This document shows positions 2,830 through 60,669 of a stretch of DNA of 64,000 nt, piece by piece. Both the position numbers and the translations under genes were made by a program. The DNA comes from Vicinamibacterales bacterium (lineage in GTDB: Bacteria > Acidobacteriota > Vicinamibacteria > Vicinamibacterales > UBA2999), in NCBI GenBank assembly GCA_036004405.1, contig DASYRM010000113.1, forward strand, positions 60,111-124,110, written 5' to 3'. The notes beneath the pieces were generated by a model. The model was not told the DNA's origin and did no database searches. It saw nothing but the letters and a program-made list of their open reading frames with translations. How positions within the stretch are numbered: the stretch's first letter is position 1; each line of letters opens with the position of its first letter.

Positions 2830-2849
2830 CGAGGCGAAGCCTCGCTACA
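2825..2849. terminator. Perfect palindrome TGTAGCGAGGC-GAA-GCCTCGCTACA carrying the dxr stop codon (REP-like/terminator)
   Basis: 11-bp perfect inverted repeat with a 3-nt loop. The dxr TAG stop lies in the left arm. A related element is found after atpF. Confidence 0.6.
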
Positions 2850-2872
2850 ATTGATGGGTTGAGGATCCGCTC

Positions 2873-4192
2873 GTGACGACTCTCTTGTCGTTTCTCTTCG
2901 TGCTGGGCGTGCTTATCTTCGTGCACGAGCTCGGGCACTTTCTCGCCGCGCGCCGGCTGGGCGTGCGTGTGCTCACCTTCTCGCTTGGATTCGGGCCCAA
3001 GATCCTCAAATTCACGCGCGGCGACACCGAGTACTGCATCAGCGCGGTCCCGCTCGGCGGCTACGTGAAGATGGCGGGCGAGAGCCCGGACGATCCGCGA
3101 TCGGGCGCGCCAGACGAGTTCCTGTCGAAGACGAAGTGGGAGCGGTTTCAGGTCCTGATCATGGGGCCGGTGATGAACATCCTGCTGGCGGTCGTCGTGC
3201 TGGCGATCGTGCTGGCGCAGGGCGCCGAGGTGCCGGCCTACCTCGATCAGCCTCCGGTGGTGGGCGTCGTGGACGCGGGAAGTCCCGCCGAGCGCAGCGG
3301 CATCCGTGCCGGCGATCGCATCCTGACGGTGGGCGGCGAGCGCGTCGACACGTGGGACCACGCCGAGATCGCGGTGAAGATGCGTCCCAGCCGCACCATC
3401 CCGGTGACGGTCGAGCGTGCCGGACGCACCGTGGCGTTCGACGTACAGTCGACGAGCGAAGGGCGATGGGAGGCAGGCGCGATCGGTATCGCACCGATGA
3501 TCCGCCCCATGGCCAGAGCGCTCGAACGCGGCGACCCGGCCGACAAGGCCGGCATGAAACCCGGCGATGTCATTGTCGCGGTCAACGGCGCGCGCATGTC
3601 GTCCACGCAGGACCTCACGACGGCGATCCGCGGGAACGCCGAAAAGCCCATCGATCTGCTGATCAGCCGTAGCGGAGTCGAACAGCACCTTCCCGTCACG
3701 CCGATTCTCAAGGAAGACCGGGGCTGGATCGGGATCACGATCGTGGCCGAGACCCGGTCTTTCACGCCCGGTCCGTTCGAGGCAGTGCGCATGAGCGTGG
3801 TGCAGAACGCCACGTCGGGCGTGATGATCTTCAAGATTCTCGGCGGCCTCTTCACCGGGTCGACGTCGGTGCGCCAGCTTCAGGGCCCGGTGGGCATCGC
3901 GCAGCTGTCGGGCGAATCGGCGCAGGCAGGCTTCGTGCAGCTCCTGTCGCTGATGGCCGTCATCAGCCTCAACCTCGGCCTGCTGAACCTGATGCCGGTG
4001 CCGGTGCTCGACGGCGGTCACATCCTGATCATGGCGCTCGAAGGCGTGGCGCGCCGCGACTTCAGCATGGCGGTCAAGGAGAAGATGCTGCTCGCCGGCT
4101 TCGTCGTCCTGATGATGCTGATGGTGACCGTGATCTACAACGACCTCACCCGTATCACCTGGATCGAACGCCTCATGCCCTGGCGTAACTGA
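2873..4192 (+). CDS. rseP: RIP metalloprotease RseP (site-2 protease, M50 family) with PDZ domains
   Basis: 439 aa. HELGHFLAARRLGV HEXXH motif in the first TM helix. Internal PDZ-like regions and a C-terminal LDGG motif. Canonical position after dxr. Confidence 0.9.
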   Translation: MTTLLSFLFVLGVLIFVHELGHFLAARRLGVRVLTFSLGFGPKILKFTRGDTEYCISAVPLGGYVKMAGESPDDPRSGAPDEFLSKTKWERFQVLIMGPVMNILLAVVVLAIVLAQGAEVPAYLDQPPVVGVVDAGSPAERSGIRAGDRILTVGGERVDTWDHAEIAVKMRPSRTIPVTVERAGRTVAFDVQSTSEGRWEAGAIGIAPMIRPMARALERGDPADKAGMKPGDVIVAVNGARMSSTQDLTTAIRGNAEKPIDLLISRSGVEQHLPVTPILKEDRGWIGITIVAETRSFTPGPFEAVRMSVVQNATSGVMIFKILGGLFTGSTSVRQLQGPVGIAQLSGESAQAGFVQLLSLMAVISLNLGLLNLMPVPVLDGGHILIMALEGVARRDFSMAVKEKMLLAGFVVLMMLMVTVIYNDLTRITWIERLMPWRN

Positions 4193-28833: not shown

Positions 28834-29730
28834 CTATGGCTGCTGTTTCTTGAGCCAGGGGAGGAAGCGCTCGTTTTCGCCGCAGACGAACTCGATGAGG
28901 TCGGTGTCGGCGAGCAGGCGCTGATTGACGCGCACCGTCCAGGGCTTCGTGTAGGCCTTTGGATCGTCGATGGTGATGTCGATCTCGAGGCGGCCGACGT
29001 TGACGCGACGGAAGCGCTCGATCAGCTTGCCCTCGGTCGTCAGCGGCGCTCCGTTCACGTCGAGCCAGCCCTCGTCGCGGAAGTTCGTGCTCTCCACCAC
29101 CAGCGTGTCGCCTTCCCACCAGCCGCGGGAGTAGCCGAACCACCACGGCTGCGCGTCCTTCGACGGCGCCGGACGGCCGTCCATGAAAATCTGGCGCACC
29201 CCCGCGTTGGCCTCGTAGAGGATCACGATCAGATCGGCGGTTTGAATGATCTTGCGCGGCTGCGAGTGCGTGTGCAGCTGCATGTAGCCGAGCGGCAGGC
29301 ACGCGGCGTCGGGATTGTCCGCGCTGTTGCGGGCCATGCGCTGGCGCCGCAGCTCGCGCGCCCATGGAGTGAAGGGCAGCCCTTCCTTGAAGCCGGCCTC
29401 GATGTTCCAGAACGTCGCTTCGGGCGGCGTACCCGGCGGGGGCGGCGGCGGTCCGCCGCGGAAGCCGAGCACGCCGGCGAAGTTCCAGATGCCGGAGAAG
29501 TCGATTTTGCCGGCCGCCGTGCGTGGCGCCGGCGCCGACAAATCCGGCTTGCCGTCGGCGGTCCGCGGCGTCTTCGCGTCGCGATACGCCGGCCACTGGG
29601 CGCCGATCGACACCGACATCGCGACGACGACGGCAAGCGTCGCCGCCGCTCGTAGAGGCGAACCTTGAGGTTCGCCTGCGCCTCCAGACGGACCTTCTGA
29701 AGGTTCGCCTCTACGTACGAGTGACGACAT
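28834..29730 (-). CDS. Secreted protein, paralog family member 1 (GKPDLSG-W / GRWEGDTLVVE / DPxxYTxPW motifs). Function unknown
   Basis: 298 aa. One of four related genes in the window (also 33069..33917, 53161..54009 and the C-terminal domain of 56313..57461). The N-terminal 25 codons are encoded by a REP-like palindrome. Confidence 0.7.
   Translation of the reverse strand: MSSLVRRGEPSEGPSGGAGEPQGSPLRAAATLAVVVAMSVSIGAQWPAYRDAKTPRTADGKPDLSAPAPRTAAGKIDFSGIWNFAGVLGFRGGPPPPPPGTPPEATFWNIEAGFKEGLPFTPWARELRRQRMARNSADNPDAACLPLGYMQLHTHSQPRKIIQTADLIVILYEANAGVRQIFMDGRPAPSKDAQPWWFGYSRGWWEGDTLVVESTNFRDEGWLDVNGAPLTTEGKLIERFRRVNVGRLEIDITIDDPKAYTKPWTVRVNQRLLADTDLIEFVCGENERFLPWLKKQQP
29652..29715. repeat. 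Compound REP-like palindrome (GAGGCGAACC-TTGA-GGTTCGCCTG plus outer inverted repeat) inside the 5' coding region of 28834..29730
   Basis: Same AGGCG[G/A]ACC-TNNA-GGT[C/T]CGCCT family as the elements at 40195 and 48035. Confidence 0.55.
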
Positions 29731-29733: not shown

Positions 29734-30747
29734 CTAGTTGCCGCTCAGATTGCCGGGCCACGGCGACGTGACGTGATACGTCGCTGCCGGGCCGACCATC
29801 TCCACGCGCCGGATCTTGGCGTTTTCGATCAGGAACGCTTCGCTCACGAGGATGCTGCTCGGACGGTTGAACCCGGGGTAGCTGTGTTTGGTGCCGTCGG
29901 AGAGCACGCCCGAGTTCACCGTGCCCTGGTCGAACGTGCAGTGCGCCCAGACCACCCCGCGCTCCTGGTCCACCAGCGGATAGCGGCGGTGATGGATGTT
30001 CTGCACCACGTAATAGAGCCCCTTCTGGAACTGCGTCAGGCAGTCCATCGAGAACAGGTTGATCGTGCCCGGAGCCTGGTTCGGCGGTGCCGGGACGTTC
30101 GTCGTCGGCGCGCCGTTCTCGATGCGGTGGCAGTCGTTGGTGAACGGATAGGTGGGCGAGCCGTTCACGCCCTTGCCGTCGTTCTTCTGCAGGCCGCTGA
30201 AGTAGGCGTCGGCGACCGAGATCATCTGCTGCCGCGACAGCCGCTGCGCCGGCGGGATGGTCCGGAACCACAGGTCTTCGGCCTTGCCCATCTTGTCCAT
30301 GGCGGCGATGTTGTTGGGACCGCCGCCGCCCGGCTTGAAGTAGATCGACTCGATCTCGGTGATGCGCCCGAGCTCCACGCGCAGGCGCAGGCTCATGAGG
30401 ATCGGCGTGCCCGCCTCCATCATCGTGCCCATCATCGCGACCTGGCCGAACTCGGGATCCGCGAAGACGTGGCGGTAGTTGCCCAGGCCCTGTGCGGTTT
30501 TCCAGAACCCGTCGCCGACGTCGATCACCTGGTTGTTCTCGGTGTACATCACGTCCTTCGAGAGCGGCACCCTCGACGGATCGTGGGCCACCACAGCCTT
30601 CAGGTACTGATCGATGAGGCCCTCGAGGCAGGCGCGGTTGCAGTCGAGCGGAATCGGTCCCGTCGAGCCGCTGACGCGAGTGCCGAGCGAACCCACGAGA
30701 AGCGCCGCGCAAACCGCGGCCACGGCCAGTGTCGAGCGCATGGACAT
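29734..30747 (-). CDS. Secreted hypothetical protein
   Basis: 337 aa. Signal peptide. 3-nt spacing to downstream paralog-1 gene (co-transcribed). No confident domain call (possibly NTF2-like N-terminus). Confidence 0.55.
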   Translation of the reverse strand: MSMRSTLAVAAVCAALLVGSLGTRVSGSTGPIPLDCNRACLEGLIDQYLKAVVAHDPSRVPLSKDVMYTENNQVIDVGDGFWKTAQGLGNYRHVFADPEFGQVAMMGTMMEAGTPILMSLRLRVELGRITEIESIYFKPGGGGPNNIAAMDKMGKAEDLWFRTIPPAQRLSRQQMISVADAYFSGLQKNDGKGVNGSPTYPFTNDCHRIENGAPTTNVPAPPNQAPGTINLFSMDCLTQFQKGLYYVVQNIHHRRYPLVDQERGVVWAHCTFDQGTVNSGVLSDGTKHSYPGFNRPSSILVSEAFLIENAKIRRVEMVGPAATYHVTSPWPGNLSGN

Positions 30748-33068: not shown

Positions 33069-33917
33069 CTATTTCGCGTTGAGCAGGTGGGTCTGATCCC
33101 TCTCGTTCTCGTTGCAGAAGTATTCGAGGATGTCGGTATCGGGCTGCAGCAGGTGGGTCACCTTGATCGTGAACGGCCGCGTGTAGACGACTGGATCGTC
33201 GAACGTGAGCTCCACGTCGAGGTGCCCCACGTCGCGCCGGCGATAGCGCTCGGTGATGCGCATCTTCTCGCTGCGCGGGTGGCCGAAGATGTCGAGCGGC
33301 CCCTTGCCGTTGAAGCCGACGGTCTCCACCACCAGCGTGTCGCGATCCCACCGCCCGATCGAGTAGCCGAGCCACGACGGGTTCGGATCCGCGGGCAGCG
33401 GCCGGCCGTCGGTGTAGACCTGCCGCGTGGCGTTGTCGAGCTCGTGCATGATCAGCGTCAGGCCGGGCGTCTGCACGATCTTGGTGAATTCCGAGAGCAG
33501 CGTCGCCAGCGGGATGCTGGCCGGCAGGCAGCGCGTCAGGGTGTCGAGACCGGAGCTGTGCTCGTTGCGGCGCGCGATCTCGTCGGCGACGTCCTTGCGG
33601 ATCGGCTCTTCGCCGGGCTTGAAGTCGATCAACACGCTGAGGCCGTATTTCGAGATCGTGTCGGCGGTCATGCCCGGCACTTCTACCGCATCCACGTCGT
33701 TGCCGAAGATGCGTTTCATGGCCGGAAGCCCGGTCGGCTCGACGTGCCACACGCCCGACAAGTCCGGTTTGCCTTCGCGCGTGCGCGGAGCCGCCGCGCT
33801 CAGGTTCACCTTGCCGTCCTTCGTGCGCGGCAGTCCTGGCGTCGGGTAGTTCACCCACTGCGCCTGTACGGCTTCGGTGGCCAGGCACAACATCAATGCA
33901 AGGAGGAAGCGAGACAT
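33069..33917 (-). CDS. Secreted protein, paralog family member 2
   Basis: 282 aa. Signal peptide (VQA|QW). GKPDLSGVW, CLPASIP, YSIGRWDRDTLVVETVGF, ERYRRRD, DDPVVYTRPFT motifs. Confidence 0.7.
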   Translation of the reverse strand: MSRFLLALMLCLATEAVQAQWVNYPTPGLPRTKDGKVNLSAAAPRTREGKPDLSGVWHVEPTGLPAMKRIFGNDVDAVEVPGMTADTISKYGLSVLIDFKPGEEPIRKDVADEIARRNEHSSGLDTLTRCLPASIPLATLLSEFTKIVQTPGLTLIMHELDNATRQVYTDGRPLPADPNPSWLGYSIGRWDRDTLVVETVGFNGKGPLDIFGHPRSEKMRITERYRRRDVGHLDVELTFDDPVVYTRPFTIKVTHLLQPDTDILEYFCNENERDQTHLLNAK

Positions 33918-34853: not shown

Positions 34854-36179
34854 ATGACGCGTCAGATGAGCGCGGCTCTCGTGTGGGTAGCGGTCGTCGC
34901 CTGGGCGGCGGGTGCCGCCGCGCAGCCGGCAGTCGACGAGCTCCGCATCATCGCGCCCGCGGCGCCCGGCGGCGGTTGGGATCAGACCGCGCGTGTCATG
35001 CAGACCGCGCTCCAGCGCGCGGGTCTCGTGCGCATCGCGCCGGTCGAGAACGTGCCGGGCGCGGCCGGCACGATCGGGCTGGCGCGGTTCATCGGCGCCG
35101 AAGCGGGACGCCGCGACGTGGTGATGGTGTCGGGCCTCATCATGCTCGGCGGCATCGTCACGCACCACGCGCCGGTGACGCTGCACGACGTCACGCTCCT
35201 GGCGCGCCTCACCGGCGAGTACGAGGTCATTGCCGTGCCGGCGACGTCGCCCTTCCGCACCCTGCGCGACCTGCTCGACGCGTTCACCGCGCGCCCCGAA
35301 TCAATCTCCTGGGGCGGCGGATCGGCCGGCGGCAGCGATCAGATCCTGGCGGGGCTGGTGGCCGACGCGGTCGGCGTGTCGCCCTCGCGCGTGAACTACA
35401 TCGCCTTCTCGGGTGGCGGCGAGTCGCTGGCCGCGATTCTCGGCGGCCAGGTGTCGGTGGGCGTCAACGGGCTGGCCGAGTTTGCGCCGCAGATCGAAGC
35501 GGGCACGCTGCGCCCGCTGGCGATCTCGAGCGCCGAACGGCTGCCGGGGGTGGAGGTGCCGACGCTGCGCGAGCAGGGGCTCGCGATCGATTTCGAAAAC
35601 TGGCGATCGCTGGTGGCGCCGCCGGGCGTCGCTCCCGCCGACCGCGCGCGGCTCGACTCGCTCATTGCGGCGATGGTCGTGTCACCGGCATGGCGCGAGT
35701 CGCTCGCGCGTTACCGGTGGCTGGACCGCTACCTGACGGGCGACGCCTTCTTGCAGTTCGCGGCCGCCGAAGAAACGCGGGTCAGAGACGTGCTGCGAAA
35801 GTTCGCGGCGGGGCAGGAGAGCAGCCGCACGTCGCCCGAGCCGTATCCCTGGCTGGTCATTGCCGGTCTGCTCGTGACCGGTGCGCTTCTCGCGAGACAG
35901 ATCGTCCGGTCCGGGCGCGGCCAGTCGGCAGAGGGCTCGGGCCGCGCGCCGGTGGCGCTGCTGGCGGCCGCGGCCGTGCTCCATCTCCTGCTGCTCGAAC
36001 GGGCCGGCTTCGTGCTGGCCGCGGCCGTGCTCTTCTGGCTCGCCGCGCGCGCGTTCGACCCCCGCCATCCGGTTCGTGACGGCATGTTCGCCGTCGGCGT
36101 GTCCGTGTCCACCTACCTGCTCTTCGCGCACGTCCTGCACCTGTCGCTGCCGGCGGGACTGCTGGCGGGCTGGCTGTGA
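34854..36179 (+). CDS. Tripartite tricarboxylate transporter substrate-binding protein TctC fused to TctB-like small membrane component
   Basis: 441 aa. Residues 1-320 look like a TctC/Bug family periplasmic binding protein. Residues about 325-441 form 3-4 TM helices resembling TctB. Single uninterrupted frame. Overlaps tctA by 4 nt. Confidence 0.7.
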
Positions 36180-37657
36180 ACACGATTGAGCTGCTGCGCG
36201 GCGGGTTCGACAGCGCACTCTCGTGGACCCACCTGCTGTGGGCGTTTGCCGGCGTGACGCTGGGGACGGCGGTGGGCGTGCTGCCGGGCATCGGCCCCGC
36301 GCTCACCGTGGCGCTGCTCCTGCCGATCACGTTCAACCTCGACCCGACCAGCGCCTTCATCATGTTCGGCGGCATCTACTACGGCGCGATGTATGGCGGC
36401 TCCACCACCAGCATCCTGCTGAACACACCGGGCGAGACGGCGTCGATCGCCACCGCCATCGATGGCTACGCGATGGCACGGCAGGGCCGCGGAGCATCGG
36501 CGCTCACGACGGCCGCCATCGGATCGTTCGTCGCCGGCACGCTGGCCACCATTGCGTTGACGTTCTTCTCGCCGCTCTTGGCGTCGGTGGCGCTCCGGTT
36601 CGGACCGGCCGAATATTTCGCGCTCGCCGTGCTGGCGTTCACGACGGTGTCGGCGCTCATCGGCGGGTCGCTCACGCGCGGGCTCTTCAGCCTGTTCCTC
36701 GGCCTCGCGCTGGGTCTCGTCGGCATCGACCAGCTGACGGGCGATGCGCGCTTCGCGTTCGGCATCCCACAGTTGCTCGACGGCATCGACGTGCTGATCC
36801 TGGTGATCGGGCTGTTTGCCGTCGGCGAGACGTTCTATCAGGCCTGGCGCCACGGGCGTGATGAACCCGAGGTGATTGCGCTGCAGACCTTCACCGGCAT
36901 GAGCCGCCAGGACTGGTCGCGATCCTGGCGTCCCTGGCTGCGGGGGACGGCCATCGGCTTTCCGCTCGGCGTCCTGCCGGTGGGCGGCTCGGTGATTCCC
37001 ACCTTTCTCTCGTACAGCGTGGAGAAGCGGTTGAGCGCGACGCCCGAGGAGTTCGGGCGCGGCGCCATCGAGGGCGTGGCGGGGCCCGAAGCGGCCAACA
37101 ACGCCGCGGCGGCGGGCGTACTGGTGCCGCTCCTCACGCTCGGCCTGCCGTCGTCGGCCACGGCCGCGGTGCTGCTCGCGGCCTTCGAGCAGTACGGGCT
37201 GCAGCCGGGACCGCTGCTGTTCTCGTCCCGTCCCGACCTGGTCTGGACGCTGATCGCGAGCCTCTACATCGGCAACGTGATGCTGCTCGTGCTCAACCTG
37301 CCGCTGGTCGGCGTGTGGGCGCGCGTCATGCTCGTCCCGCGGCCGCTGCTCTTCGGCGGCATCCTGGTACTCGCCTCGCTTGGCACCTACAGCCTCAACG
37401 CGTCGATGCTCGACGTCGTGCTGCTGTTCGCCACCGGCGTGGTCGGCTGCGCCATGCGTGTGCATGACGTGCCGCTGGTGCCGGCGGTGCTGGGGCTGGT
37501 GCTCGGGCCGCTGGCAGAGCTGCAGTTCCGGCGCGCGCTCGCGATCAGCGAAGGCGACCTGACCGTCTTCCTCACCCGCCCGCTGTGCGCGGCGCTGCTG
37601 GCCGTGTCGGTGGCGGCGCTGATTACGCCCGCGGTCGTCAAGGTGCGGCGCGCATGA
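36176..37657 (+). CDS. tctA: Tripartite tricarboxylate transporter permease TctA
   Basis: 493 aa, about 12 [15 protein letters not shown] and TctA-family conserved segments. Confidence 0.85.
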
Positions 37658-48096: not shown

Positions 48097-49197
48097 ATGG
48101 TCGGGGACCCGCTCGAACCCGCTGCGTCGGCCGCGGCCGCCGGGCTTCGCTATGTCAACGACGGCCGGATGCCGGGGATCCGGCGGCTTGGCACCACGCG
48201 GATGCGCTACGTGGACCCGCACGGGCGTGCGATCACCGGTCGCCAGGTGCTCGATCGCATCAAGGCTTTGGCGGTGCCCCCCGCCTGGACCAGCGTGTGG
48301 ATCTGTCCCGATCCGCTCGGTCACCTGCAGGCCACCGGTCGCGACGCGCGCGGCCGCAAACAGTACCGGTATCACCCGCGGTGGCGAGAGGTGCGCGACG
48401 ACGTCAAGTACGGCCGGCTGCTCGAGTTCGCGGCCGCGCTGCCGGCGCTGCGCGAACATGTGGCTGCCGACGTACGACGGAACGGCCTGCCGCGCGAGAA
48501 GGTGCTCGCCACCGTCGTCGCGCTCCTCGAGAAGACGCTGATCCGCGTCGGCAACGAGGAATACGCCCGCGCCAACCGGTCGTACGGGCTCACCACGATG
48601 CGTAACAGTCACGCGAAAGTGAAGGGCGGTGGCATTCGCTTCGAATTCCGGGGCAAGAGCGGCGTTGCTCACAGCGTCGGCGTGCAGGACGCGCGCCTGG
48701 CGCGGATCGTCAAAGCGTGCCGCGATCTGCCCGGTTACGAGCTGTTTCAGTACGTGGACGAGCAGGGAGAGCGGTGTGCCGTCGACTCGGCCGACGTCAA
48801 CGACTACCTGCGCCAGGTGTGCGGCGAGGAGTTCACGGCGAAAGACTTCCGGACCTGGGCCGGCACGGTGCTGGTGGCCCGGGCGTTGGCGGACGCCGAG
48901 CCTGCAGCCACTGCGGCCGCAGGCAAGCGGACGATCGTGCGGGCCATCGAGACCGCCGCGCAGCGGCTGGGAAACACCGTGGCAGTGTGCCGCAAGTCCT
49001 ATGTGCATCCGGCGATCGTCGAGGGGTTTCTCGAAGGCGACGTGATCGCGCCGGCGTCCGCCTTCGCCAAGGTTACGGCGGGCAAGCGCCGCTCGCCGTC
49101 GAGAGGCCACCGCCTGACGGGCGACGAGGCGGCGGTGGCCCGGTTGATCGAACGGCGCACGCGAGCGAACCGCAGGGCGGCCAAAAAGGCGGCGTAA
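48097..49197 (+). CDS. DNA topoisomerase IB (poxvirus-type bacterial TopIB)
   Basis: 366 aa. Strong similarity to the bacterial TopIB family (YVNDGRMPGIRR..., RKQYRYHP, GLTTMRN, catalytic Tyr region near the C-terminus). Confidence 0.85.
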   Translation: MVGDPLEPAASAAAAGLRYVNDGRMPGIRRLGTTRMRYVDPHGRAITGRQVLDRIKALAVPPAWTSVWICPDPLGHLQATGRDARGRKQYRYHPRWREVRDDVKYGRLLEFAAALPALREHVAADVRRNGLPREKVLATVVALLEKTLIRVGNEEYARANRSYGLTTMRNSHAKVKGGGIRFEFRGKSGVAHSVGVQDARLARIVKACRDLPGYELFQYVDEQGERCAVDSADVNDYLRQVCGEEFTAKDFRTWAGTVLVARALADAEPAATAAAGKRTIVRAIETAAQRLGNTVAVCRKSYVHPAIVEGFLEGDVIAPASAFAKVTAGKRRSPSRGHRLTGDEAAVARLIERRTRANRRAAKKAA

Positions 49198-52781: not shown

Positions 52782-53164
52782 GGACCGGGCAGCCCACGTG
52801 CTCCTGTCGCTGCTGTTGCCGAGAGAGCGCGCGTCGGCGATTGTCGGCGATCTGCTCGAGGAGACATCCGCCCGCCGCCTGCGCTTCTGTCGTGCGCACC
52901 GCCGCCGCGTCGTTGGGGCACGGGCCGATGACGGCGCCCCTCTCGATGTATGCAGGAGCGGGGCTTGGATGGTTCGTCGTCGCGGGAATCGTCATCGCGC
53001 TCGTGTGGCAGGTGACGGCGATCGTCGTCCCCTTCGCGGCGTTCTTCACGCGCGCCACGTTCACGCTGATGCCGGCGATCGGTGCCAGTGTGCTGGCCGA
53101 TGCGGTGTGGGCACGCATCGGTTCACTTCGGCACGCACGGATCGATGGCCGCTGGCCAGACTAG
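52774..53164 (+). pseudogene. Possible frameshifted PadR-associated membrane partner (HAAS-like N-terminus plus 2-TM C-terminus in different frames)
   Basis: Frame 1 starts MRKDRAAHVLLSLLLPRERASAIVGDLLEE (resembles HAAS/permease-prefix openings), then degenerates. Frame 2 from about 52921 encodes MTAPLSMYAGAGLGWFVVAGIVIALVWQVTAIVVPFAAFF.... A single indel could join them. Confidence 0.3.
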
Positions 53165-54009
53165 TGCCGAAACTGCGTGGAGACCTCTTTCAGCTCGCTC
53201 TCCGTGCAGCTGCCGCGCTCGCCGATGATCGCCGGGTTCCGTGAGAGCCGCAGGGTGCGTGCCGGCATGACCCACGGCTTGACCAGTACTTCCGGGTCCT
53301 CGACGGTGACCTCGTAGAGCAGCTCGTTCCCTTTCCGCGTGAACTTCTCGATGACCCGCATCTGGTCGGTGTGAAACCAGCCGCCGCGGCCCAGCCACGT
53401 CTCGTCGCTGAAGCCGATCGAGTCGAGGACGAGCGTGTCGCCTTCCCACCGGCCGACCGTGTATCCCATGTAGGTGTACTCGGCCGCCTTCCGCGGATCG
53501 TGCGGCTTGCCGTCGAGCGCGATCATGCGGTGCTCCGCGTATCCCCCGGCGCCGTCGACACCGGCTCTGTAGAGCATCGTGATGTCGGTGTCGGTGTGGA
53601 AGATGCGCGCCGGCGGTCCCTGACGGGGTGTGCCGAGCGGGAGGCAGGTCATGACCGGGTCGTACTTGTTCGTCCACTGGTCGAGCTCGATGATCTTGTC
53701 CCAGTGTTCGGGCTTGTAGAGCGGCTGACGCTCGTCGAGCCGGGTGGCCGACATGAACGGCCAGTCCTCGCTCTGATTCGTCCACTCCATGCACTCCTTC
53801 GTTTGGAACGGAGTGCAGCGCCGGAACATGTTGCCGCCGGAGCCTTGGAGACCGCCGCCGGCGTTCTGCCAGGAGCCGGTCAGGTCGGGCTTCCCGCTGG
53901 CCAGCCTGGGCGTTGGCGCGTTCGGATCCGCCGGTGGAGGAGGGCCGAACTGCGCGGCCACTGGCGTCGCGAGGACGCCGAGAACGAGTGCCATCAGGGT
54001 CGCCTTCAT
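53161..54009 (-). CDS. Secreted protein, paralog family member 3
   Basis: 282 aa after trimming (start MKATLMALVLGVLATPVAA|QF). GKPDLTGSW, CLPLGTP, YTVGRWEGDTLVLDSIGF, EKFTRKG, EDPEVLVKPW motifs. Confidence 0.7.
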   Translation of the reverse strand: MKATLMALVLGVLATPVAAQFGPPPPADPNAPTPRLASGKPDLTGSWQNAGGGLQGSGGNMFRRCTPFQTKECMEWTNQSEDWPFMSATRLDERQPLYKPEHWDKIIELDQWTNKYDPVMTCLPLGTPRQGPPARIFHTDTDITMLYRAGVDGAGGYAEHRMIALDGKPHDPRKAAEYTYMGYTVGRWEGDTLVLDSIGFSDETWLGRGGWFHTDQMRVIEKFTRKGNELLYEVTVEDPEVLVKPWVMPARTLRLSRNPAIIGERGSCTESELKEVSTQFRH

Positions 54010-54017
54010 CGCAATCC

Positions 54018-55004
54018 TCACTTTCCGGCAGCTTTCCGCACGCTGTCCGGCACCGGCATGACCACGTAGACCTGACCGATCTCGGTGACTTTCGATTTCA
54101 GGTCGCGCACGACAGTCCCGTTTCGGCGCTCGACGATGGTGCCGGCATACAGCGCCTCGATCTTGAACAGCGGATTGTTGAAGTCCGCGAAGTTGCCGTA
54201 GACGAATTCGGTCTTGTTCGTCCCGTGCGTCACGACGACGCGTTCCGGCAGGTAGTTGTCGAGCGTAGCGGTCGCCATCGCTCCGGCCACTCCAGGTATC
54301 GGGAATGTGAGGATCGCTTTCTCGCCCTGCCATGTCAGCGTCGTCGTCGCTTTCGCGCCCGCGGCGGCCTGGCGATCGAGCAGCACCGCCGGGTTCTGAC
54401 CGAAAGACTGCGAAGGCGGCACGCCGGCGGCGCCGGCGATGGCGGCCTTCACCGCGCCGTGAGGACTTGCCCAGAGACGGATCAGCCGTTCCTCGAGCGC
54501 GGCCTGCTTCGGCGTGGCCTTCCCTTTGCCGGGAACGAGCTCTGCGCCGGGAATATCTTCGTCCCAGGCAAAGTCGCCGCTCACCGTTTCCACGTTCGAG
54601 TACTTCTGGCCATTGGCGCGGGTGCACTCGATCTGCGCGCGGTACCCGGGGACCTGGTAGTTCGCCTGCACTCGATACTTCGTCAGCGTGCAGGGCTGGC
54701 CATCAACCTGGATCGTGCCGCTCTCGGCGTGATAGTCGAGCGTCTTGATCAGCTCGGACTCGGCGCCGCTGCGCAGCATCCCCATGCGCCATGTCCAGTT
54801 GAAAAGGACCGATTTCAGATCCTTGGCCCCGGGAGTCGGCGTGAACGGGCCCGCATCGAATGCGCCCCGACCTCGGCCCGGCGCCCCGGCGCCGCCCCGG
54901 CCTTGCGCCCCCGCCGGTGGACCACCCTGTGCGCCCGCCGGCGCGTACGCCGTCGCGAAGGCGGCCACAAACACGGCCGCCGCTACAGCGGTTCGAAACG
55001 CCAT
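54018..55004 (-). CDS. Secreted hypothetical protein (Gly-rich N-terminal linker)
   Basis: 328 aa. Signal peptide. Co-directional, 9-nt gap to paralog 3 and 23-nt gap from the upstream small HH protein. Confidence 0.5.
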   Translation of the reverse strand: MAFRTAVAAAVFVAAFATAYAPAGAQGGPPAGAQGRGGAGAPGRGRGAFDAGPFTPTPGAKDLKSVLFNWTWRMGMLRSGAESELIKTLDYHAESGTIQVDGQPCTLTKYRVQANYQVPGYRAQIECTRANGQKYSNVETVSGDFAWDEDIPGAELVPGKGKATPKQAALEERLIRLWASPHGAVKAAIAGAAGVPPSQSFGQNPAVLLDRQAAAGAKATTTLTWQGEKAILTFPIPGVAGAMATATLDNYLPERVVVTHGTNKTEFVYGNFADFNNPLFKIEALYAGTIVERRNGTVVRDLKSKVTEIGQVYVVMPVPDSVRKAAGK

Positions 55005-55026
55005 TTTGCGAGTCCCTTCGCGTCAG

Positions 55027-55425
55027 CTAATCAACCGAGATCTTGAACTCTTTGTCGCCCTGCTCGATCGACCGGATGAATCCGGCAGGGTTCCCGTTCT
55101 TGGCGGGAAGGATCTTGATCTTGAGCGGCTCGCCGGGCTTCATCGAGGTCTTGTTGATCCCCTGCCGCGTCAGGTTCTGTACGGAGGCCGTCGTCAGGAT
55201 CCAGTCCGTCGTCGTCCCATCCGGGTTCGGGACCGTGAGCTCGATGCTCACGTGCGGGTTTGTGAAGTGCAGCTGCTTGAGCGTGCCCTGCAGGACCATC
55301 TCTTTGTTCAGGTCGTAGACACCCGCCACGGCATGATGGGCCTGGACCCCGACGCCGGTCATGAGGACCCCGCACAAGACGACGAGTCGAAGGATTCGTG
55401 TGCTCATGACGGCGAATCGTAGCAA
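55027..55425 (-). CDS. Small secreted protein whose predicted mature N-terminus is His-His (DUF6152-like). Candidate metal (Cu) binding
   Basis: 132 aa. Signal peptide ...VGVQA|HHAVAGVYD. Homologous to the N-terminal 130 aa of the 56313..57461 protein (TYA|HHGAGRYD..., shared L.G.L..L.F.NPH). DUF6152 label tentative. Confidence 0.55.
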   Translation of the reverse strand: MLRFAVMSTRILRLVVLCGVLMTGVGVQAHHAVAGVYDLNKEMVLQGTLKQLHFTNPHVSIELTVPNPDGTTTDWILTTASVQNLTRQGINKTSMKPGEPLKIKILPAKNGNPAGFIRSIEQGDKEFKISVD

Positions 55426-55479
55426 TACACACCCCGAGCCGCAAGGATCGAGGCTCTTTGGCCGTTATACGATGTTGAT

Positions 55480-56313
55480 ATGCGGCGGACCCGGGCCTCG
55501 GGTCGACGGATGCGGTTCGCACAGGCCTTGGCGCTGGCGCTGGGACTGGCCGCCATACGTGGCGAGGCTCAGCGGCCCAACATCCTCACCAACGGCCGGA
55601 ACCTCCAGATTCCAATCAACCACGGACTCCCCGACACGCCGCTCGACTTCACGTTCTGCCGCCTGCGGTACGAGAACATACGCAGGGCGAGAAAGTCCGG
55701 TTGGGGCGACGACTATCCGCAAGCCGACTACAACTTCATGGTGCGTCTCTCCGAGCTCACCAAGACGAAAATCAGCCGGTGGAAGGATGGCGACCCCGGC
55801 TTTGCGAACGTCACCGCCATGGACCCCGATCTCTTCCAGTGTCCGTACTTGCGCATGCAGAATGCGGCCAACTACGACTTCACCCCTGAAGAGACCGTTC
55901 GCATGCACGACTACCTGCTGAAGGGCGGCTTTCTCTGGATCGACGACAACTGGGATCCGGACTTCGACTACATCCGTCCGAATCTCATGCGAATCCTGCC
56001 TGGGGCACACATCGTCGACTTGCCGGTCGACCACCCGCTGTTCGCCACGTTCTATCGTGTCGACCCGCTGCCGCAGATCCCGTCGCTCAACTCGTGGCTG
56101 CGTGGTCGTCAGGATGGTGAGTTTGGGCCTTCAACCGTCCACTACTACGGCGTGTTCGACGACCATGAGAGGCTCGTCGTGCTCGTCAGCATGAACTCGG
56201 ACGTTTCGGACAGCTGGGAGCGGGAAGGCGACAACCAGGATTACTTTCACACCTACGGAGGAAAGGGCTATGCGCTGGGTGTGAACGCCGCCGTCTACGC
56301 CATGACCCACTAG
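55480..56313 (+). CDS. Secreted hypothetical protein (possibly DUF4159-like)
   Basis: 277 aa. Signal peptide. GWGDDYPQADYNF...GGFLWIDDNWDPDFD.... Family label from memory, uncertain. Confidence 0.45.
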   Translation: MRRTRASGRRMRFAQALALALGLAAIRGEAQRPNILTNGRNLQIPINHGLPDTPLDFTFCRLRYENIRRARKSGWGDDYPQADYNFMVRLSELTKTKISRWKDGDPGFANVTAMDPDLFQCPYLRMQNAANYDFTPEETVRMHDYLLKGGFLWIDDNWDPDFDYIRPNLMRILPGAHIVDLPVDHPLFATFYRVDPLPQIPSLNSWLRGRQDGEFGPSTVHYYGVFDDHERLVVLVSMNSDVSDSWEREGDNQDYFHTYGGKGYALGVNAAVYAMTH

Positions 56314-57461
56314 TGATGGGCGAGGGGACACAGATGACAAGAGTGACGCACGCCGTACTCGTCGCCACCTTCCTCACGGTACCGGTGCTGGTCGAACGCA
56401 CCTACGCGCACCACGGCGCCGGCCGCTACGATCCGAGGAAGCACGTGGAGCTCGAGGGCAGGCTGACACGGCTCGACTTCGTCAACCCGCATTCGTATGT
56501 CTATTTCGATGTCGTCGGTGACGACGGTAAGGTCATCGCGATGAAATGCGAGATGCGGTCGGCCACGGTGCTCCGGCGCTCCGGCTGGTCGCCAGAGATG
56601 TTCAAGCCGGGCGCGTCCATCAAGGTGGCGGGTTACCCGCATCGCGACGATCCGACGGCGTGCAGCGTGGAGACGTTGACGCTTGGCGACAAGCCGACGC
56701 TCGAGCGCTATCAGCAGCTGAGCGACGCGAAATCCGTCGATCGCACGAAACGACCGTTCCGGCTGCCGAACGGCAAGCCGAACCTCGCCGGCGAGTGGGC
56801 GCAGGAGCAACAGGTCCTCGCACAGCCGCCCGGCGGGCGCATCGGGCTCGTGCCGATCAGCCAGGCCGCCGCGATCAGGGCCGGCAAGCTGCCGATGCCG
56901 AAAGGCCCCGCCGGCTGGTTCCCGCCGCCCGTGACCTTGACAGCAGCCGGACAAGCGGCGGCAGAGGCGCTGCGCAAGCAGCCGACGTCGGAGAACCCCC
57001 GGCTCTCCTGCAAGGTCACGAGCATCCTGTTCGACTGGGTGTTCGACGGCGCGATCGGCCGCATCACGCAGAGCGCGAACGCCATCAAGATGGAGTACGG
57101 CGTCGGCCTGACCCGGACTGTGCATCTGAACCTGACCGCGCACCCGCCCAATGTCGCGCCGAGCCGCGCCGGTCATTCGATCGGCCGCTGGGACGGCGAT
57201 ACGCTCGTCATCGATACCGTCGGCTTCGCGCCTGGCAGCCTGGCAGGTTCGCTTCCCCACAGCAGCAAACTGCACGTCGTCGAGCGCTTTACGCTGAATC
57301 CAACCACGCTCGAGCTCACCCGCGGCATCGTCGCCGAGGATCCCGTCTATTTCGCGGACAAGTACGTGGATTCCGATAGTGTCCTGCCGGCGGATGCGCC
57401 GTTCAGGGTCGAGGCCTGCAAGGAGCTCGCGCCGGAGTATCAGCAACCCGGGCGGAACTGA
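56313..57461 (+). CDS. Fusion protein: N-terminal HH small domain (as in 55027..55425) plus C-terminal paralog-family domain (member 4)
   Basis: 382 aa. Signal peptide ...ERTYA|HH. Residues about 30-150 match the small HH protein. Residues about 150-382 carry NGKPNLAGEW, SIGRWDGDTLVIDTVGF, ERFTLNP, EDPVYFADKY. Start may be M8 (56334). Confidence 0.65.
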   Translation: MMGEGTQMTRVTHAVLVATFLTVPVLVERTYAHHGAGRYDPRKHVELEGRLTRLDFVNPHSYVYFDVVGDDGKVIAMKCEMRSATVLRRSGWSPEMFKPGASIKVAGYPHRDDPTACSVETLTLGDKPTLERYQQLSDAKSVDRTKRPFRLPNGKPNLAGEWAQEQQVLAQPPGGRIGLVPISQAAAIRAGKLPMPKGPAGWFPPPVTLTAAGQAAAEALRKQPTSENPRLSCKVTSILFDWVFDGAIGRITQSANAIKMEYGVGLTRTVHLNLTAHPPNVAPSRAGHSIGRWDGDTLVIDTVGFAPGSLAGSLPHSSKLHVVERFTLNPTTLELTRGIVAEDPVYFADKYVDSDSVLPADAPFRVEACKELAPEYQQPGRN

Positions 57462-57517: not shown

Positions 57518-58405
57518 ATGCTTACCAAGTCAGGTTCCGTGTTGGCCTTGACGCTTCTGGTGACGGCCGTCGCCGGCGCGCAGATACCGGCTGACCCTTC
57601 TCCAACGGTCCGGCGGATCGACCACATCATGATCCGCTCGGGAAATCCTTCCGACGTGTACGGCTTGCTGGCCGACACGTTGCAGTTGCCTGTCGCATGG
57701 CCGCTCGCGAGTCCGCGAGAGGGCGTCACGACCGGCGGTGTCAGTGTCGGCAACGTCAACCTCGAAGCGATTCGCTTCCCGGCCCAGACGGAGCAACAGC
57801 CTCGACTGCTCGGCATCGCGCTCGAACCATCGCCGCTTGACCAGGCGATGCGGCAGTTGACTTTGCGCGGCCTGGCGGTTGGCAATCGGCGCGAGATCAT
57901 CGGGAGCAGATCCGACGGATCCAGGGGGCCGCTGTGGACCAACGTGACCTTGCGCCAGTTTTCAGACTCCGACAACCCGGCCGATGGGATCGTCCACGTC
58001 TTTCTAAGTGAGTACAGTGCGGCCTATGTCGACGTTGAAGAGCGTCGCGCCCGTCTGCGTCAGCAACTCGCGGCGAGTGGCGGCGGACCGCTCGGCATCA
58101 CCGACGTGAAAGAGGTCGTTGTGGGAGTCAGCGATCTGGCGTCGGCGAGGCGACTCTGGCAGCAGCTGCTCGAACCGGCCGTCTTGGCGGGTCCGGACCA
58201 ATGGCAGGTCGGCGATGGCCCAGCGATACGTCTTGTGCCCGCTGATCAGAATCGGATGGAAGCGCTCGTCATACGCGTGGCATCGCTCGACAGGGCGAAG
58301 ACGTTCCTGCGCGACAACGGACTGCTGGGAAAGGAAGCTGACGGACAGGTCACCATAGCTTCTTCGAAGCTCGGTGCCGTTGATCTCCGCCTCGTTCCCC
58401 GATAG
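57518..58405 (+). CDS. Secreted hypothetical protein (possible VOC/glyoxalase-like fold)
   Basis: 295 aa. Signal peptide. IDHIMIRSGNPSDVYGLL resembles VOC beta-alpha-beta-beta-beta openings. Weak. Confidence 0.4.
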   Translation: MLTKSGSVLALTLLVTAVAGAQIPADPSPTVRRIDHIMIRSGNPSDVYGLLADTLQLPVAWPLASPREGVTTGGVSVGNVNLEAIRFPAQTEQQPRLLGIALEPSPLDQAMRQLTLRGLAVGNRREIIGSRSDGSRGPLWTNVTLRQFSDSDNPADGIVHVFLSEYSAAYVDVEERRARLRQQLAASGGGPLGITDVKEVVVGVSDLASARRLWQQLLEPAVLAGPDQWQVGDGPAIRLVPADQNRMEALVIRVASLDRAKTFLRDNGLLGKEADGQVTIASSKLGAVDLRLVPR

Positions 58406-58976
58406 CCGACGCGCTCGAACCATGTTGCTGAACTTCACCAGGCGTCGTCGGCTGGCAATCCTGCTGGCCGTCCTGAGCGTCGTTGTTGCGCTCGTGCTCC
58501 TTGGCAGGTGGGGGAATGCCAGGAAGGTCGGCGGACAGGGGCCCGCTGAACCGTTCCGAATCGCCGGCAACCTTTACTACGTCGGGGCGACCGACGTCTC
58601 GGCGTTCCTTGTCACCGGGCCCGAGGGCCACGTCGTGCTCGACGGCGGCTATCCCACCACGGCGCGCTTGATCATGGCGAGTATCGCGAAGCTCGGCTTC
58701 GACATCAAGGACGTCAAAGTGCTGCTCAATTCGGAGCCGCACCCCGACCACGGGGGCGGGCTGGCGGGGCTCCAGCAGGCGTCGGGTGCTCAGTTGTGGG
58801 CCAGCGACGCGAGCGCCGATTCCCTCGCCTCCGGCGGCGACGACCCCGACGGCTTCCTGCCATTGAGGGCCCTCACCTGGATCGGCGTCTTCGGCTATCC
58901 GGCTCCGCGCGTCGACCACCGGTTCAAGGATGGCGACACGATCCGTGTGGGACCGACTGCACGATGGTGCCTGTGA
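58374..58976 (+). pseudogene. Subclass B3-like metallo-beta-lactamase fold gene, 3'-truncated
   Basis: 200 aa. Signal/TM. YYVG...FLVTG..GHVVLDGG, then EPHPDHGGG (E-x-H-x-D-H variant of HxHxDH), then DGDTIRVGP. Ends about 90 aa short, exactly where GC drops and a foreign segment starts. No C-terminal half in any frame downstream. Confidence 0.55.
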
Positions 58977-59133
58977 TGGAAGTGTTTGTTCGTACCGGGA
59001 CGGGTGATGACAAAGAGTGTTCGGCCGAGAACATGGAATTCGTCGGCATCGCCGCGTGAAGGCGTCAGCTCGGCTCAGGGAAGTTGCGTCGCTGTCGAAC
59101 CTTCATTCAGTGGCGTCCTGAATCGCGCCCGAA

Positions 59134-59382
59134 CTATCGCAGATGCCGATTGGCGAAGGCAACACCTGATCCGGACTTCAGATATCGCTCAAAGGCAACG
59201 GCCCGCTGTTCATCCCCGAACTCGATGACCAGGTCGATGGACCAGGGTCGGTACTTGGCCGTGTGGATACGACTGCCGGAGTTGTGCTCCGAGTATCGTG
59301 TCGAAACGTTCGAGGTCAGGCCAGTGTAGTACCGCGGTGGAACGGCGCCGTTCTTGAGCACGTAGACAAAGCGCTTCGACAT
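59134..59382 (-). CDS. GIY-YIG nuclease family protein (YhbQ/UPF0213-like)
   Basis: 82 aa. MSKRFVYVLKNGAVPPRYYTGLTSNVSTRYSEHNSG...PWSIDLVIEFGDEQRAVAFERYLKSGSG. The 173-aa ORF extension upstream is translation of repeat DNA. Confidence 0.75.
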   Translation of the reverse strand: MSKRFVYVLKNGAVPPRYYTGLTSNVSTRYSEHNSGSRIHTAKYRPWSIDLVIEFGDEQRAVAFERYLKSGSGVAFANRHLR

Positions 59383-59499
59383 CCGCGGTGCTTCAGCAAG
59401 CAGGTTGCCGCGTCGAATCAGGGCAGGATCTTCATGAGTGGGCGATCGGGTCGCAGTCTTATGAACAAAGAGCAGGTACCGAAGTTCCAAGGACTGGGA

Positions 59500-59690
59500 G
59501 GTCCACCTTCGCTCGCCTGAAGACACCGCAAGCTTCGGTGGACATCCTTCGCCTGTTGGTGGTGTGAGCTGGCTGGCTTGCCAACCATAGCTCGCTGCGA
59601 GCGTCTCGGCAGTCCACCTTCGCTCGTTTGAATTCTTGCGAGCTACGGTGGACAACCTTCGCGTGAGTCATGAGCGAAGGTTGGTACCCC
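59500..59690. repeat. Two tandem about 55-nt imperfect palindromic elements (GTCCACCTTCGCTCG...CGGTGGACAxCCTTCGC) 110 nt apart, plus a third partial inverted copy
   Basis: Copy 1 about 59500-59553. Copy 2 about 59610-59663 (about 85% identical). Partial reverse copy GAGCGAAGGTTGGTAC at about 59672. Lies in the lower-GC segment upstream of the GIY-YIG gene. Not CRISPR-like (2 copies, palindromic). Confidence 0.6.
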
Positions 59691-59850
59691 TTCGATCACG
59701 AAGTTCAAACCCCAACCAGCCTGGAGATCGATCCGTCGGTGGCTTGAAGCGATGCAGCTAATTGCCGCTGCTTGAATCACTTATCCTGTTGTGACGTTTC
59801 TGGATACCGGGGGCGTGCTACACTGTGGCCAAATATCTACACGTATTGAT

Positions 59851-60105
59851 ATGGCTCTCAACATCCGCAATGCAGAAGCCGAGCGGCTCGCAGCCGAGTT
59901 GGCCAGACAGACCGGCGAGACCAAGACCGAAGCGGTGACCAAGGCTCTGCGCGATCGGCTCGCGCGTGTGCGGCGCGAGCGCTCCCGTCGGCGACTGGCG
60001 GATGAACTCGAGGCCATTGCGGAACACTGCGCCAAGCTGCCCGTCCTCGACGCCAGATCCGCAGACGACATTCTCGGCTACGACGAGCACGGTCTGCCGC
60101 GCTAG
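59851..60105 (+). CDS. vapB: Type II antitoxin VapB (Rv0623/PSK-like)
   Basis: 84 aa from ATG 59851. [39 protein letters not shown].... Confidence 0.8.
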
Positions 60106-60267
60106 TCCCCTGGAAGCGTGATGACTCACCTGATTCCCGGGCGGGGCATCCCGCCTGGCTGCGTTGCTCATCGCTTACTTATGCCCAATAAGCTCGCTCT
60201 TCGCGCCTTGCCAGCCGGGCGCCGCGCTCCGGGACTTAGGCAAGTCATCACGCTTCCAGGGGACTAG
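60102..60267. mobile_element. MITE-like element inserted exactly between vapB stop and vapC start. 25-bp perfect terminal inverted repeats CTAGTCCCCTGGAAGCGTGATGACT / AGTCATCACGCTTCCAGGGGACTAG
   Basis: Left TIR 60102-60126 contains the vapB TAG. Right TIR 60243-60267 abuts the vapC ATG. About 116-bp non-coding core. CTAG on both ends could be a target-site duplication. Confidence 0.6.
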
Positions 60268-60669
60268 ATGGTCATCGACACGTCCGCGCTCGTTGCCATC
60301 CTGCAACGTGAGCCCGAACGGCGTGCCTTCATCGAAGCCATCGAAGCCGCTGATGCTCGCCTGATGTCTATCGCTACCTCTGTCGAGATCTCCATCGTCA
60401 TCGAAGCGCGACACGGCGCCGAAGGACTGCGCGACCTCGATCACTTTATCGGTCGGGCAGGCATCGAGCTCGTACCCGTTGACGCCGAACACGGCAAAGT
60501 GGCGTGCAGCGCGTTCATCCGATTTGGAAAGGGACGGCATCGCGCAGGCTTGAATTACGGCGACTGCTTCTCGTACGCACTCGCGATCTCGACGGGAGAG
60601 CCGCTCCTCTTCAAAGGGGACGATTTCGTCCACACCGACGTTACGATCGTGGATCTGGGCTCGCGCTGA
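60268..60669 (+). CDS. vapC: Type II toxin VapC (PIN-domain ribonuclease)
   Basis: 133 aa. MVIDTSALVAIL N-terminus with the first acidic residue, later conserved Asp/Glu positions, C-terminal GDDF. Confidence 0.85.
   Translation: MVIDTSALVAILQREPERRAFIEAIEAADARLMSIATSVEISIVIEARHGAEGLRDLDHFIGRAGIELVPVDAEHGKVACSAFIRFGKGRHRAGLNYGDCFSYALAISTGEPLLFKGDDFVHTDVTIVDLGSR

Follow-up and report, generated by a model that had tools for sequence, protein, structure and literature searches.

The window analysed here, a 64,000-nucleotide stretch of contig DASYRM010000113.1 from a Vicinamibacterales bacterium, carries between positions 53161 and 57461 two adjacent loci that bring together a small secreted domain, DUF6152, and a family of secreted proteins with a predicted beta-barrel fold. 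In the minus-strand locus a DUF6152 protein (gene A) is encoded ahead of a secreted protein of another kind (gene B) and a member of the barrel family (gene C). In the plus-strand locus a DUF4159 gene (gene D) is followed by a gene in which a DUF6152 domain and a barrel domain are joined in frame (gene E). It is strongly supported that the DUF6152 and barrel domains act together, and the histidine pair with which DUF6152 is predicted to begin after signal cleavage suggests how they may do so. The G+C content of the region is 60-68%, and the nearest homologues of its proteins come from metagenome-assembled genomes (MAGs) of Vicinamibacterales (Acidobacteriota). The features of the two loci are as follows; slashes mark predicted signal cleavage, aa stands for amino acids, OB for oligonucleotide/oligosaccharide-binding and FABP for fatty acid-binding protein.

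55027..55407, minus strand: gene A, stand-alone DUF6152 protein of a predicted OB-fold family, 126 aa (Pfam PF19649, E 2e-25)
55339..55407, minus strand: predicted Sec signal peptide of A (MSTRILRLVVLCGVLMTGVGVQA), cleaved after VQA and followed by HH, from the translation and its conservation
55333..55338, minus strand: His-His codons of A, predicted mature residues 1-2, invariant in alignments A2 and A3
55252..55260, minus strand: Asn-Pro-His motif of A, 24 residues past His-His
54018..55004, minus strand: gene B, secreted protein of 328 aa with a predicted LolA/LolB-like fold
53161..54009, minus strand: gene C (called paralog 3 in the preliminary description), secreted protein of the barrel family, 282 aa, with a conserved Cys pair
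55480..56313, plus strand: gene D, DUF4159 (PF13709, E 2.5e-33), 5' of gene E
56334..57461, plus strand: gene E, fusion protein, 375 aa from ATG 56334
56352..56684, plus strand: DUF6152 domain (predicted OB fold) of E, profile match E 1.9e-45
56409..56414, plus strand: His-His codons of E, residues 26-27, directly after VERTYA, invariant in 53 fusion proteins
56484..56492, plus strand: Asn-Pro-His motif of E, residues 51-53, invariant in alignment A2
56724..57458, plus strand: barrel domain of E (gene C family), predicted FABP/nitrobindin-like

Domain assignments and gene starts

The DUF6152 assignments are firm in both loci. Gene A scores 89.2 bits against the Pfam model, and residues 29-113 of gene E score 69.5 bits (E 2.7e-19), with a gathering threshold of 27 for each. 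Gene A also has a profile match at 55060-55407 (E 5e-39), the N-terminal half of E is similar to gene A by BLASTP (E 3e-14), and all 13 members of alignment A3, in which stand-alone and fused DUF6152 sequences are mixed, match the Pfam family. E is laid out in the order signal peptide, DUF6152 OB domain, linker and barrel domain. Gene C was placed in the barrel family by BLASTP against E (E 7e-13) and by alignment A1, and its fold is taken from the model of E. Gene D scores 115.8 bits as DUF4159 (threshold 25.9), covering profile positions 2-202 of 202. Genes B and C have no Pfam or NCBIfam match, and NCBIfam gave none for all six proteins scanned. When the Pfam search was relaxed to E<=10, the barrel drew zero matches and gene B one spurious match to S4; DUF6152 alone drew weak matches to OB families (DUF4131 and tRNA_anti-codon). 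Scanned with profiles in all six frames, the window yields precisely two DUF6152 domains, with four C-type domains and a single B.

The preliminary description had started gene A at TTG 55425 and gene E at GTG 56313. The ATG codons at 55407 and 56334 are likelier; the latter has GAGGGG on its 5' side and gives the 375 aa found in nearly all close homologues. Apart from these starts, the elements described at the two loci are all present: the small gene with the His-His terminus, the in-frame fusion, the paralogs and the DUF4159 gene. Between the stop of A and the start of B there are 22 bp with GAAGGGA inside, and between the stop of B and the start of C 8 bp, with GAGGA upstream of C; this spacing and the purine-rich, ribosome-binding-like motifs make an A-B-C operon plausible. 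The stop of D lies 20 bp from the ATG of E, and the two genes are probably co-transcribed in the window.

Conservation of the His-His terminus and the Asn-Pro-His motif

The N-termini of A and E both run from a basic region through a hydrophobic core to VQA/HH in A or TYA/HH in E. Is the position of the two histidines a peculiarity of this genome? An alignment of 53 fusion sequences (alignment A2) was made from E, 47 diverse full-length representatives of clusters at 50% identity and 5 close homologues; the sole sequences left out were those whose N-termini are truncated or frame-shifted. His26, His27, Asn51, Pro52, His53, Gly153 and Cys226 are invariant across it and the Ala preceding His-His is nearly so, with identity to E going down to 27%. 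His-His, Asn-Pro-His and the Ala at position -1 are likewise invariant or nearly so in alignment A3.

A wider sample consisted of 94 DUF6152 open reading frames (ORFs) from 80 loci in other genomes, whose N-termini were not a selection criterion. The pattern of His-His, about 24 residues, and Asn-Pro-His, with at least 25 residues upstream, is found in 83 of the 94. The remainder mostly failed on having fewer than 25 upstream residues alone; two are cut by the end of the ORF or the locus and three have Phe or Val for Asn. His-His itself is present in 91 of the 92 ORFs that could be assessed. Three further properties are each shared by 73 of the 83 pattern-fitting ORFs: Ala at -1; Ala, Val or Leu at -3; and a spacing of exactly 24 residues from His-His to Asn-Pro-His. 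An Asp at +10 (157/187, with an aromatic residue at +9) and a Glu in strand 3 (168/187) are also conserved. The fused OB domains carry a Cys pair, which the stand-alone protein A is without. Thus the N-terminal histidines are conserved across homologues, and by the -3/-1 rule and its conservation cleavage would leave His as residue 1. The AXA-type signal peptidase site with His as the first mature residue, as the preliminary description had read it in both proteins, is therefore a conserved property of the family as far as sequences can tell.

Linkage of DUF6152 and the barrel across genomes

A search with E among 1.84 billion cluster representatives (50% identity) gave 7,677 clusters at E<=1e-3 and 170 at E<=1e-30, including dozens of full-length fusions of 340-430 aa with 31-50% identity. 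In a scan with the C-domain alignment over one genome per species, at least 587 loci were confirmed, and 80 were kept for analysis. The C-domain loci span Acidobacteriota (Vicinamibacterales, Bryobacterales and Terriglobia), Gammaproteobacteria, Rhodospirillaceae and Gemmatimonadales. DUF6152 and the barrel occur as separate adjacent genes in Acidobacteriota, Gamma- and Alphaproteobacteria and Gemmatimonadales, and DUF6152 is present in 57 of the 80 kept loci.

How close are the two domains in these loci? In 17 of the 94 cases DUF6152 and a C-domain are fused in one ORF; of the other DUF6152 ORFs, 64 are adjacent to a C-domain gene on the same strand within 600 bp, four are adjacent on the opposite strand, and nine lie more than 600 bp away. 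In all, 85 of 94 are fused to a C-domain or lie at most 600 bp from one, while random placement in the same loci gives 36.6±4.4 with a maximum of 51 in 1,000 trials. A sample taken from the DUF6152 side agrees with this count. When gene A was compared by tblastn with the PLSDB plasmids, 14 records were obtained (Novosphingobium, Sphingobium, Croceibacterium and Azospirillum), and in six of the seven plasmid loci fetched a C-domain gene stands beside DUF6152, the exception being Azospirillum. The two domains thus co-occur and are fused well outside this genome, and the earlier proposal that they act together, made from a single fusion and its neighbourhood, gains strong support from a broad fusion family and from adjacency across phyla.

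The conserved neighbourhood that was part of the same proposal stands for the DUF6152-barrel pairing; it falls for the pairing of D with E and for the side-by-side arrangement of the two loci, as loci L088 and L001 demonstrate. DUF4159 was considered as a third conserved partner and rejected, being found in 4 of 80 loci and missing both beside an 89%-identical orthologue of E (L088) and beside an orthologue of A-B-C (L001).

In many loci the pairs are repeated as tandem arrays of divergent DUF6152/barrel pairs, for example L008, L071 and L074, which suggests lineage-specific expansion. These three loci, from Rariloculaceae and Pseudomonadota MAGs, hold several divergent pairs within 16 kb, and L008 holds at least five. 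Locus L001 also holds a stand-alone DUF6152 gene (2613-3062, minus strand) with ATA/HH and the Asn-Pro-His motif in a vicinity free of barrel genes; upstream of it, at 3173-4147 (minus strand), lies an ORF with a twin-arginine (Tat) type signal that reads as alpha/beta-hydrolase-like, an assignment made from sequence reading. The barrel may thus not be the only partner of DUF6152.

The barrel as a hub

Gene B leads to the barrel by another route. A profile of B and six orthologues gave 3,984 matches, and the architecture was read in the best 120. A C-domain is present in 100 of these best 120, and 95 reach 500 aa or more, so that a B-C fusion of about 579 aa is the dominant architecture; an example is L003 6951..8774. 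Tandem C-C proteins of about 520 aa also exist. In both types of fusion the accessory domain stands in for the signal peptide of C, and the junction falls just before the conserved segment 'G-K-P-[DN]-L-[ST]-G-x-W' of C. As neighbouring genes, B homologues were found beside the closest C orthologues only (L001-L006 and L080). The barrel thus serves as a hub for two or more partners, whether as alternatives or in addition to each other, and in the A-B-C operon of the window all three modules are separate proteins.

Six polar positions of the barrel profile (Arg147, His156, His197, His202, Glu205 and Asp223) are conserved in every architecture class. In gene C they run from about R161 to D238, and genes with no DUF6152 nearby are included. 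From this conservation the barrel may hold a binding or catalytic site of its own. A composite metal site might be expected to show barrel residues conserved only alongside DUF6152, and no clear class-specific ligand was found among the barrel positions.

The other two barrel genes of the window lie in surroundings free of DUF6152:

28834..29730, minus strand: barrel paralogue 1 (tblastn E 5e-23; profile E 2.7e-110)
33069..33917, minus strand: barrel paralogue 2 (tblastn E 3e-16; profile E 5.1e-125)

Directly upstream of paralogue 1, at 29734-30747 (minus strand), is a gene for a 337-aa secreted protein with no Pfam match. The idea that the paralogue 1 operon is a copy of A-B-C was rejected, there being no similarity between B and this 337-aa neighbour.

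Predicted folds

The AlphaFold2 model of E, built on the 53-sequence alignment, has a mean predicted local distance difference test score (pLDDT) of 87.7 and a predicted template modelling score (pTM) of 0.84. Its N-terminal domain is predicted to run strand-strand-strand-helix-strand-strand, the order of an OB fold, and its structure matches are SSB, PriB and the OB domain of LysRS. The C-terminal domain is modelled as an antiparallel barrel of ten strands and superposes on structures of FABP or nitrobindin, 3ia8 and 3wjb being among the matches. The model of B shows a beta-barrel that is open and covered by a helical lid, and it can be superposed on LolA or LolB. With LolA-like and FABP-like folds, the B and C modules would be typical of carriers or enzymes of hydrophobic ligands.

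These likenesses are of fold. Sequence-profile searches of the PDB gave zero matches with the B alignment and a single match, at E 1.3, with the fusion alignment, and no solved structure related by sequence to any of the modules was found in them. Compared with FABP/calycin proteins (nitrobindin/THAP4, Rv2717c, UnaG and Oplophorus luciferase), the barrel shows 7-18% identity and no profile match, and differs from them in an N-terminal extension of about 100 residues, a conserved disulfide and a periplasmic location. B shows 5-14% identity to members of the LolA/LolB superfamily (LolB, DUF4292, DUF1329 and NE2245). It is usually fused to an FABP-like barrel, an architecture that is not known from Lol proteins. 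The window genes scanned include no Lol genes, and the signal peptide of B is type I-like and lacks a lipobox Cys.

Genomic context

Do the neighbours of the family point to a function? Among 110 genes that flank members of the family in other genomes, the Pfam assignments are heterogeneous. Most frequent are CarboxypepD_reg domains with outer-membrane domains of TonB type (7 of 110) and the metallo-beta-lactamase fold (6 of 110), followed by amidohydrolases (4 of 110) and by pyrroloquinoline quinone (PQQ) enzymes, cytochrome c and short-chain dehydrogenases/reductases (SDRs), with three of 110 each. Neighbours on the sphingomonad plasmids include a monooxygenase and a peroxiredoxin as well as TonB-dependent receptors and regulators of the MarR and TetR types; in Croceibacterium atlanticum the locus tags WYH_RS16165, WYH_RS16160 and WYH_RS16155 lie beside a TonB-dependent receptor gene. 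In the window a PadR regulator converges on gene C, and metallo-beta-lactamase-fold genes stand on both sides.

The sole copper-related context seen is in L088 (11644-14207), where the orthologue of E, 89% identical, lies about 3.5 kb upstream of haem-copper oxidase assembly genes for CtaA (COX15), CtaB (UbiA) and DUF420, with three genes between.

Downstream of E in the window, after 57 bp, there is a plus-strand gene (57518-58405) for a 295-aa protein with a signal-peptide-like N-terminus, whose only match is a sub-threshold one to Glyoxalase_3 (E 0.019). A clear glyoxalase/vicinal oxygen chelate (VOC) gene occurs just 5' of a DUF6152 gene in another locus (L013:6946-7470). In the stretch 58374-60669 a metallo-beta-lactamase ORF matches positions 2-97 of 196 of Lactamase_B only, after which the G+C content falls to 0.59. 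Past this ORF come a GIY-YIG gene (59134-59655, minus strand) and a toxin-antitoxin pair, consisting of an Rv0623-like antitoxin (59791-60105) and a PIN-domain protein (60268-60669). An insertion could have truncated the metallo-beta-lactamase gene here. A GIY-YIG gene is also found downstream of the E orthologue in L088.

Two further observations concern genes elsewhere in the window. At 34854-36179 (plus strand) a single 441-aa ORF matches TctC (residues 47-315) and TctB (residues 320-433) and is followed by TctA at 36176-37657 (plus strand), a possible fusion of TctC and TctB within a tripartite tricarboxylate transporter. At 48097-49197 (plus strand) there is a bacterial type IB topoisomerase (Topoisom_I and Top1B_N_bact).

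Discussion

What would a protein gain from two histidines at its very amino terminus? Together with its alpha-amino group, a histidine at position 1 closes a six-membered chelate ring that prefers Cu(II) and is the defining feature of the histidine brace; a second histidine then provides its tau nitrogen and completes a T-shaped N3 site with the amino group and the pi nitrogen of His1 (PMC10952591). In CopC, YcnI and PmoF1 such an N-terminal histidine follows the signal peptide (PMC10952591). DUF6152 resembles the histidine-brace proteins (lytic polysaccharide monooxygenases (LPMO), CopC, PmoB/PmoF1, X325/Bim1 and YcnI, the last with a mono-His brace) in that signal cleavage exposes His1, as predicted here, and in at least one further conserved histidine. 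Some of the brace families are also large and expanded, as DUF6152 is. LPMO, CopC and YcnI share a beta-sandwich fold, immunoglobulin- or cupredoxin-like. Unlike these proteins DUF6152 has an invariant second histidine at position 2, and Pfam and PDB profile searches showed no sequence similarity between the two groups.

A histidine at position 2 is in turn the classic Xaa-His motif, known from the glycyl-histidyl-lysine (GHK) peptide and from the N-terminus of NikM/CbiM. DUF6152 would have what Xaa-His sites and those of the amino-terminal copper and nickel (ATCUN) type require, namely a free amino terminus, His2 and a distal histidine, here that of Asn-Pro-His, and a planar four-nitrogen site is as good a candidate as a brace. 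It differs from the nickel/cobalt transporters NikM/CbiM, which are membrane proteins of unrelated fold, and its residue 1 is itself His. Two other periplasmic proteins offer partial parallels. ZinT/YodA joins a calycin-like barrel to a His-rich mature N-terminus for metal handling. CusF, a Cu(I)/Ag(I) chaperone, is small, periplasmic and OB-folded as DUF6152 is predicted to be; a CusF match with its His/Met/Met/Trp site was not found in DUF6152.

On these grounds we tentatively propose that an amino-terminal-His metal site acts with a ligand-holding barrel, an explanation to which we give somewhat less than an even chance. The starting points are the homologies, the conservation of the histidines and their cleavage context, the fusions and the adjacency across phyla, all seen in the sequences, and the OB, FABP-like and LolA-like folds predicted by the models. 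The system would be a modular periplasmic one, built around the disulfide-bonded, FABP/nitrobindin-like barrel C, whose most likely cargo is a small hydrophobic ligand, with DUF6152 and B as accessory modules that join the barrel as operon partners or as in-frame fusions. In DUF6152, His-His, the histidine of Asn-Pro-His and the free amino terminus would most likely make up a nitrogen-rich metal site. By Irving-Williams preference its metal would be Cu(II), held in a histidine-brace-like manner through His1 or in an Xaa-His-type manner through His2. B, as a LolA/LolB-like open barrel, would carry or hand over the hydrophobic ligand, and the metal site would act on the ligand in the barrel, either oxidising or sensing it. 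Gene E would then hold metal module and barrel in one polypeptide, and A-B-C would supply the three modules separately. We infer the metal site because we know of no other explanation as economical for the absolute requirement for His first; metal binding, the identity of the metal, the hydrophobic ligand and the action of the metal site on that ligand are what we infer here.

A bolder form of the proposal would make DUF6152 an OB-fold scaffold, not recognised before, for an amino-terminal histidine copper site of the brace or Xaa-His type. With the barrel it would belong to a new and very large family of periplasmic oxygenases or oxidases that depend on copper and attack small hydrophobic molecules in the barrel, with B feeding the substrate. 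We consider this improbable as it stands.

Several observations weigh against the explanation that we favour. One fused DUF6152-barrel homologue, in L028 (7101-8477, plus strand), carries Asp-Arg where His-His is otherwise found. No DUF6152 lies within 600 bp of half the C-domain ORFs (96/192), among them two of the four in the window, so the barrel does not depend on DUF6152. The conserved His, Arg, Glu and Asp of the barrel itself are common to all architecture classes. In the model of E the pLDDT is below 50 at residues 19-26, that is up to the first histidine, and averages 46 over residues 21-30, and the model of B (44 sequences) is of moderate confidence, with pLDDT 67.9 and pTM 0.67. Copper-handling families are absent from the 25 commonest Pfam families in the 110 flanking genes. 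The scaffolds of histidine-brace proteins are beta-sandwiches, whereas DUF6152 is modelled as a five-stranded OB barrel. The copper histidine brace suggested in the preliminary description is plausible but unproven: the His at +1 and the further invariant His (His2 and that of Asn-Pro-His) speak for it, while the OB fold is unlike known braces, the model is unreliable at His-His and copper-handling families are missing from the commonest neighbours.

Could the proteins instead be carriers with no catalytic role? B and C would then form a chain that shuttles hydrophobic or chelate-type nutrients entering through TonB-dependent receptors, and the DUF6152 histidines would ligate the cargo itself, for instance its polar head group or, in a metallophore or tetrapyrrole, its metal, and not a free metal ion. 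The predicted folds of B and C are typical of carriers of lipids or hydrophobic ligands. Nitrobindin-type barrels bind haem, and the barrel matches 3ia8 and 3wjb. TonB-dependent receptors and CarboxypepD_reg outer-membrane proteins are the commonest neighbours and flank the genes on Croceibacterium and Sphingobium plasmids, and MarR, TetR and PadR regulators are nearby. However, the TonB-type neighbours amount to just about 7 of 110 flanking genes, and no transporter is consistently linked in the loci examined. Large tandem arrays of divergent pairs would be odd for a carrier of a single cargo, and for an axial ligand there would be no need of an invariant His placed exactly at +1. We hold this explanation to be somewhat unlikely.

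An explanation without any metal is less likely again. The histidines might be general acid/base catalysts, a pH switch, or a docking peptide that plugs the partner barrel, and the conserved polar residues of the barrel could host the catalysis or binding with DUF6152 as a lid or regulator. The low confidence of the N-terminal segment in the model is what a flexible tail would give. FABP-fold luciferases, which are cofactor-free oxygenases, are among the structure matches of the barrel. Yet a free alpha-amino group with two imidazoles is by nature a strong chelator of Cu(II) or Ni(II) in the oxidising periplasm (PMC10952591). It is also hard to explain an absolute His at +1 if the amino terminus is not involved.

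It is very unlikely, finally, that DUF6152 is a copper-homeostasis chaperone, a carrier like CopC, YcnI or CusF that delivers or sequesters copper with the barrel as mere scaffold: the N-terminal His placed as in CopC, YcnI and PmoF1, the example of CusF for an OB fold serving as periplasmic copper chaperone, and the E orthologue about 3.5 kb upstream of the CtaA, CtaB and DUF420 genes in L088 would suit it, but Cop, Cus, Sco, PCuAC, multicopper oxidases and P-type ATPases are absent among the commonest neighbours and the adjoining window genes, many paralogous pairs occur per genome, and tight coupling to a hydrophobic-ligand barrel would be unexpected. Since the pairs are tandem and divergent and are coupled to folds for hydrophobic ligands, a diversified enzyme or binding family is favoured over such a chaperone.

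How much of this is new? DUF6152 is an existing Pfam family and is uncharacterised, and the barrel and B families have no Pfam or NCBIfam model. Our literature search found no paper mentioning DUF6152 and none pairing 'histidine brace' with 'OB-fold'; the operons in a 2026 paper on TonB-dependent copper transporters are unrelated to the DUF6152/barrel loci. As far as these searches tell, there is no earlier description of the His-His signature, of either fusion, of the barrel as a hub or of the fold assignments. The families are large, with more than 6,400 clusters at 90% identity for the barrel profile, and they are abundant in MAGs of Acidobacteriota and Proteobacteria from varied environments, including those of soil and marine bacteria.

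To our knowledge histidine-brace chemistry has so far been confined to polysaccharide and methane/ammonia oxidation and to copper trafficking. If His-His binds copper, it would provide this chemistry with a new scaffold and a new class of substrate. An enzyme of this kind, if true, would be the first of histidine-brace type outside beta-sandwich scaffolds and outside polysaccharide/methane chemistry. The Asp-Arg variant in L028 could serve as a natural control, and cultured hosts exist in Novosphingobium, Sphingobium and Croceibacterium. Copper aside, the double Rosetta stone of DUF6152-barrel and LolA-like-barrel fusions gives a cheap and clear experimental entry into a major part of the periplasmic 'dark matter' of these bacteria.

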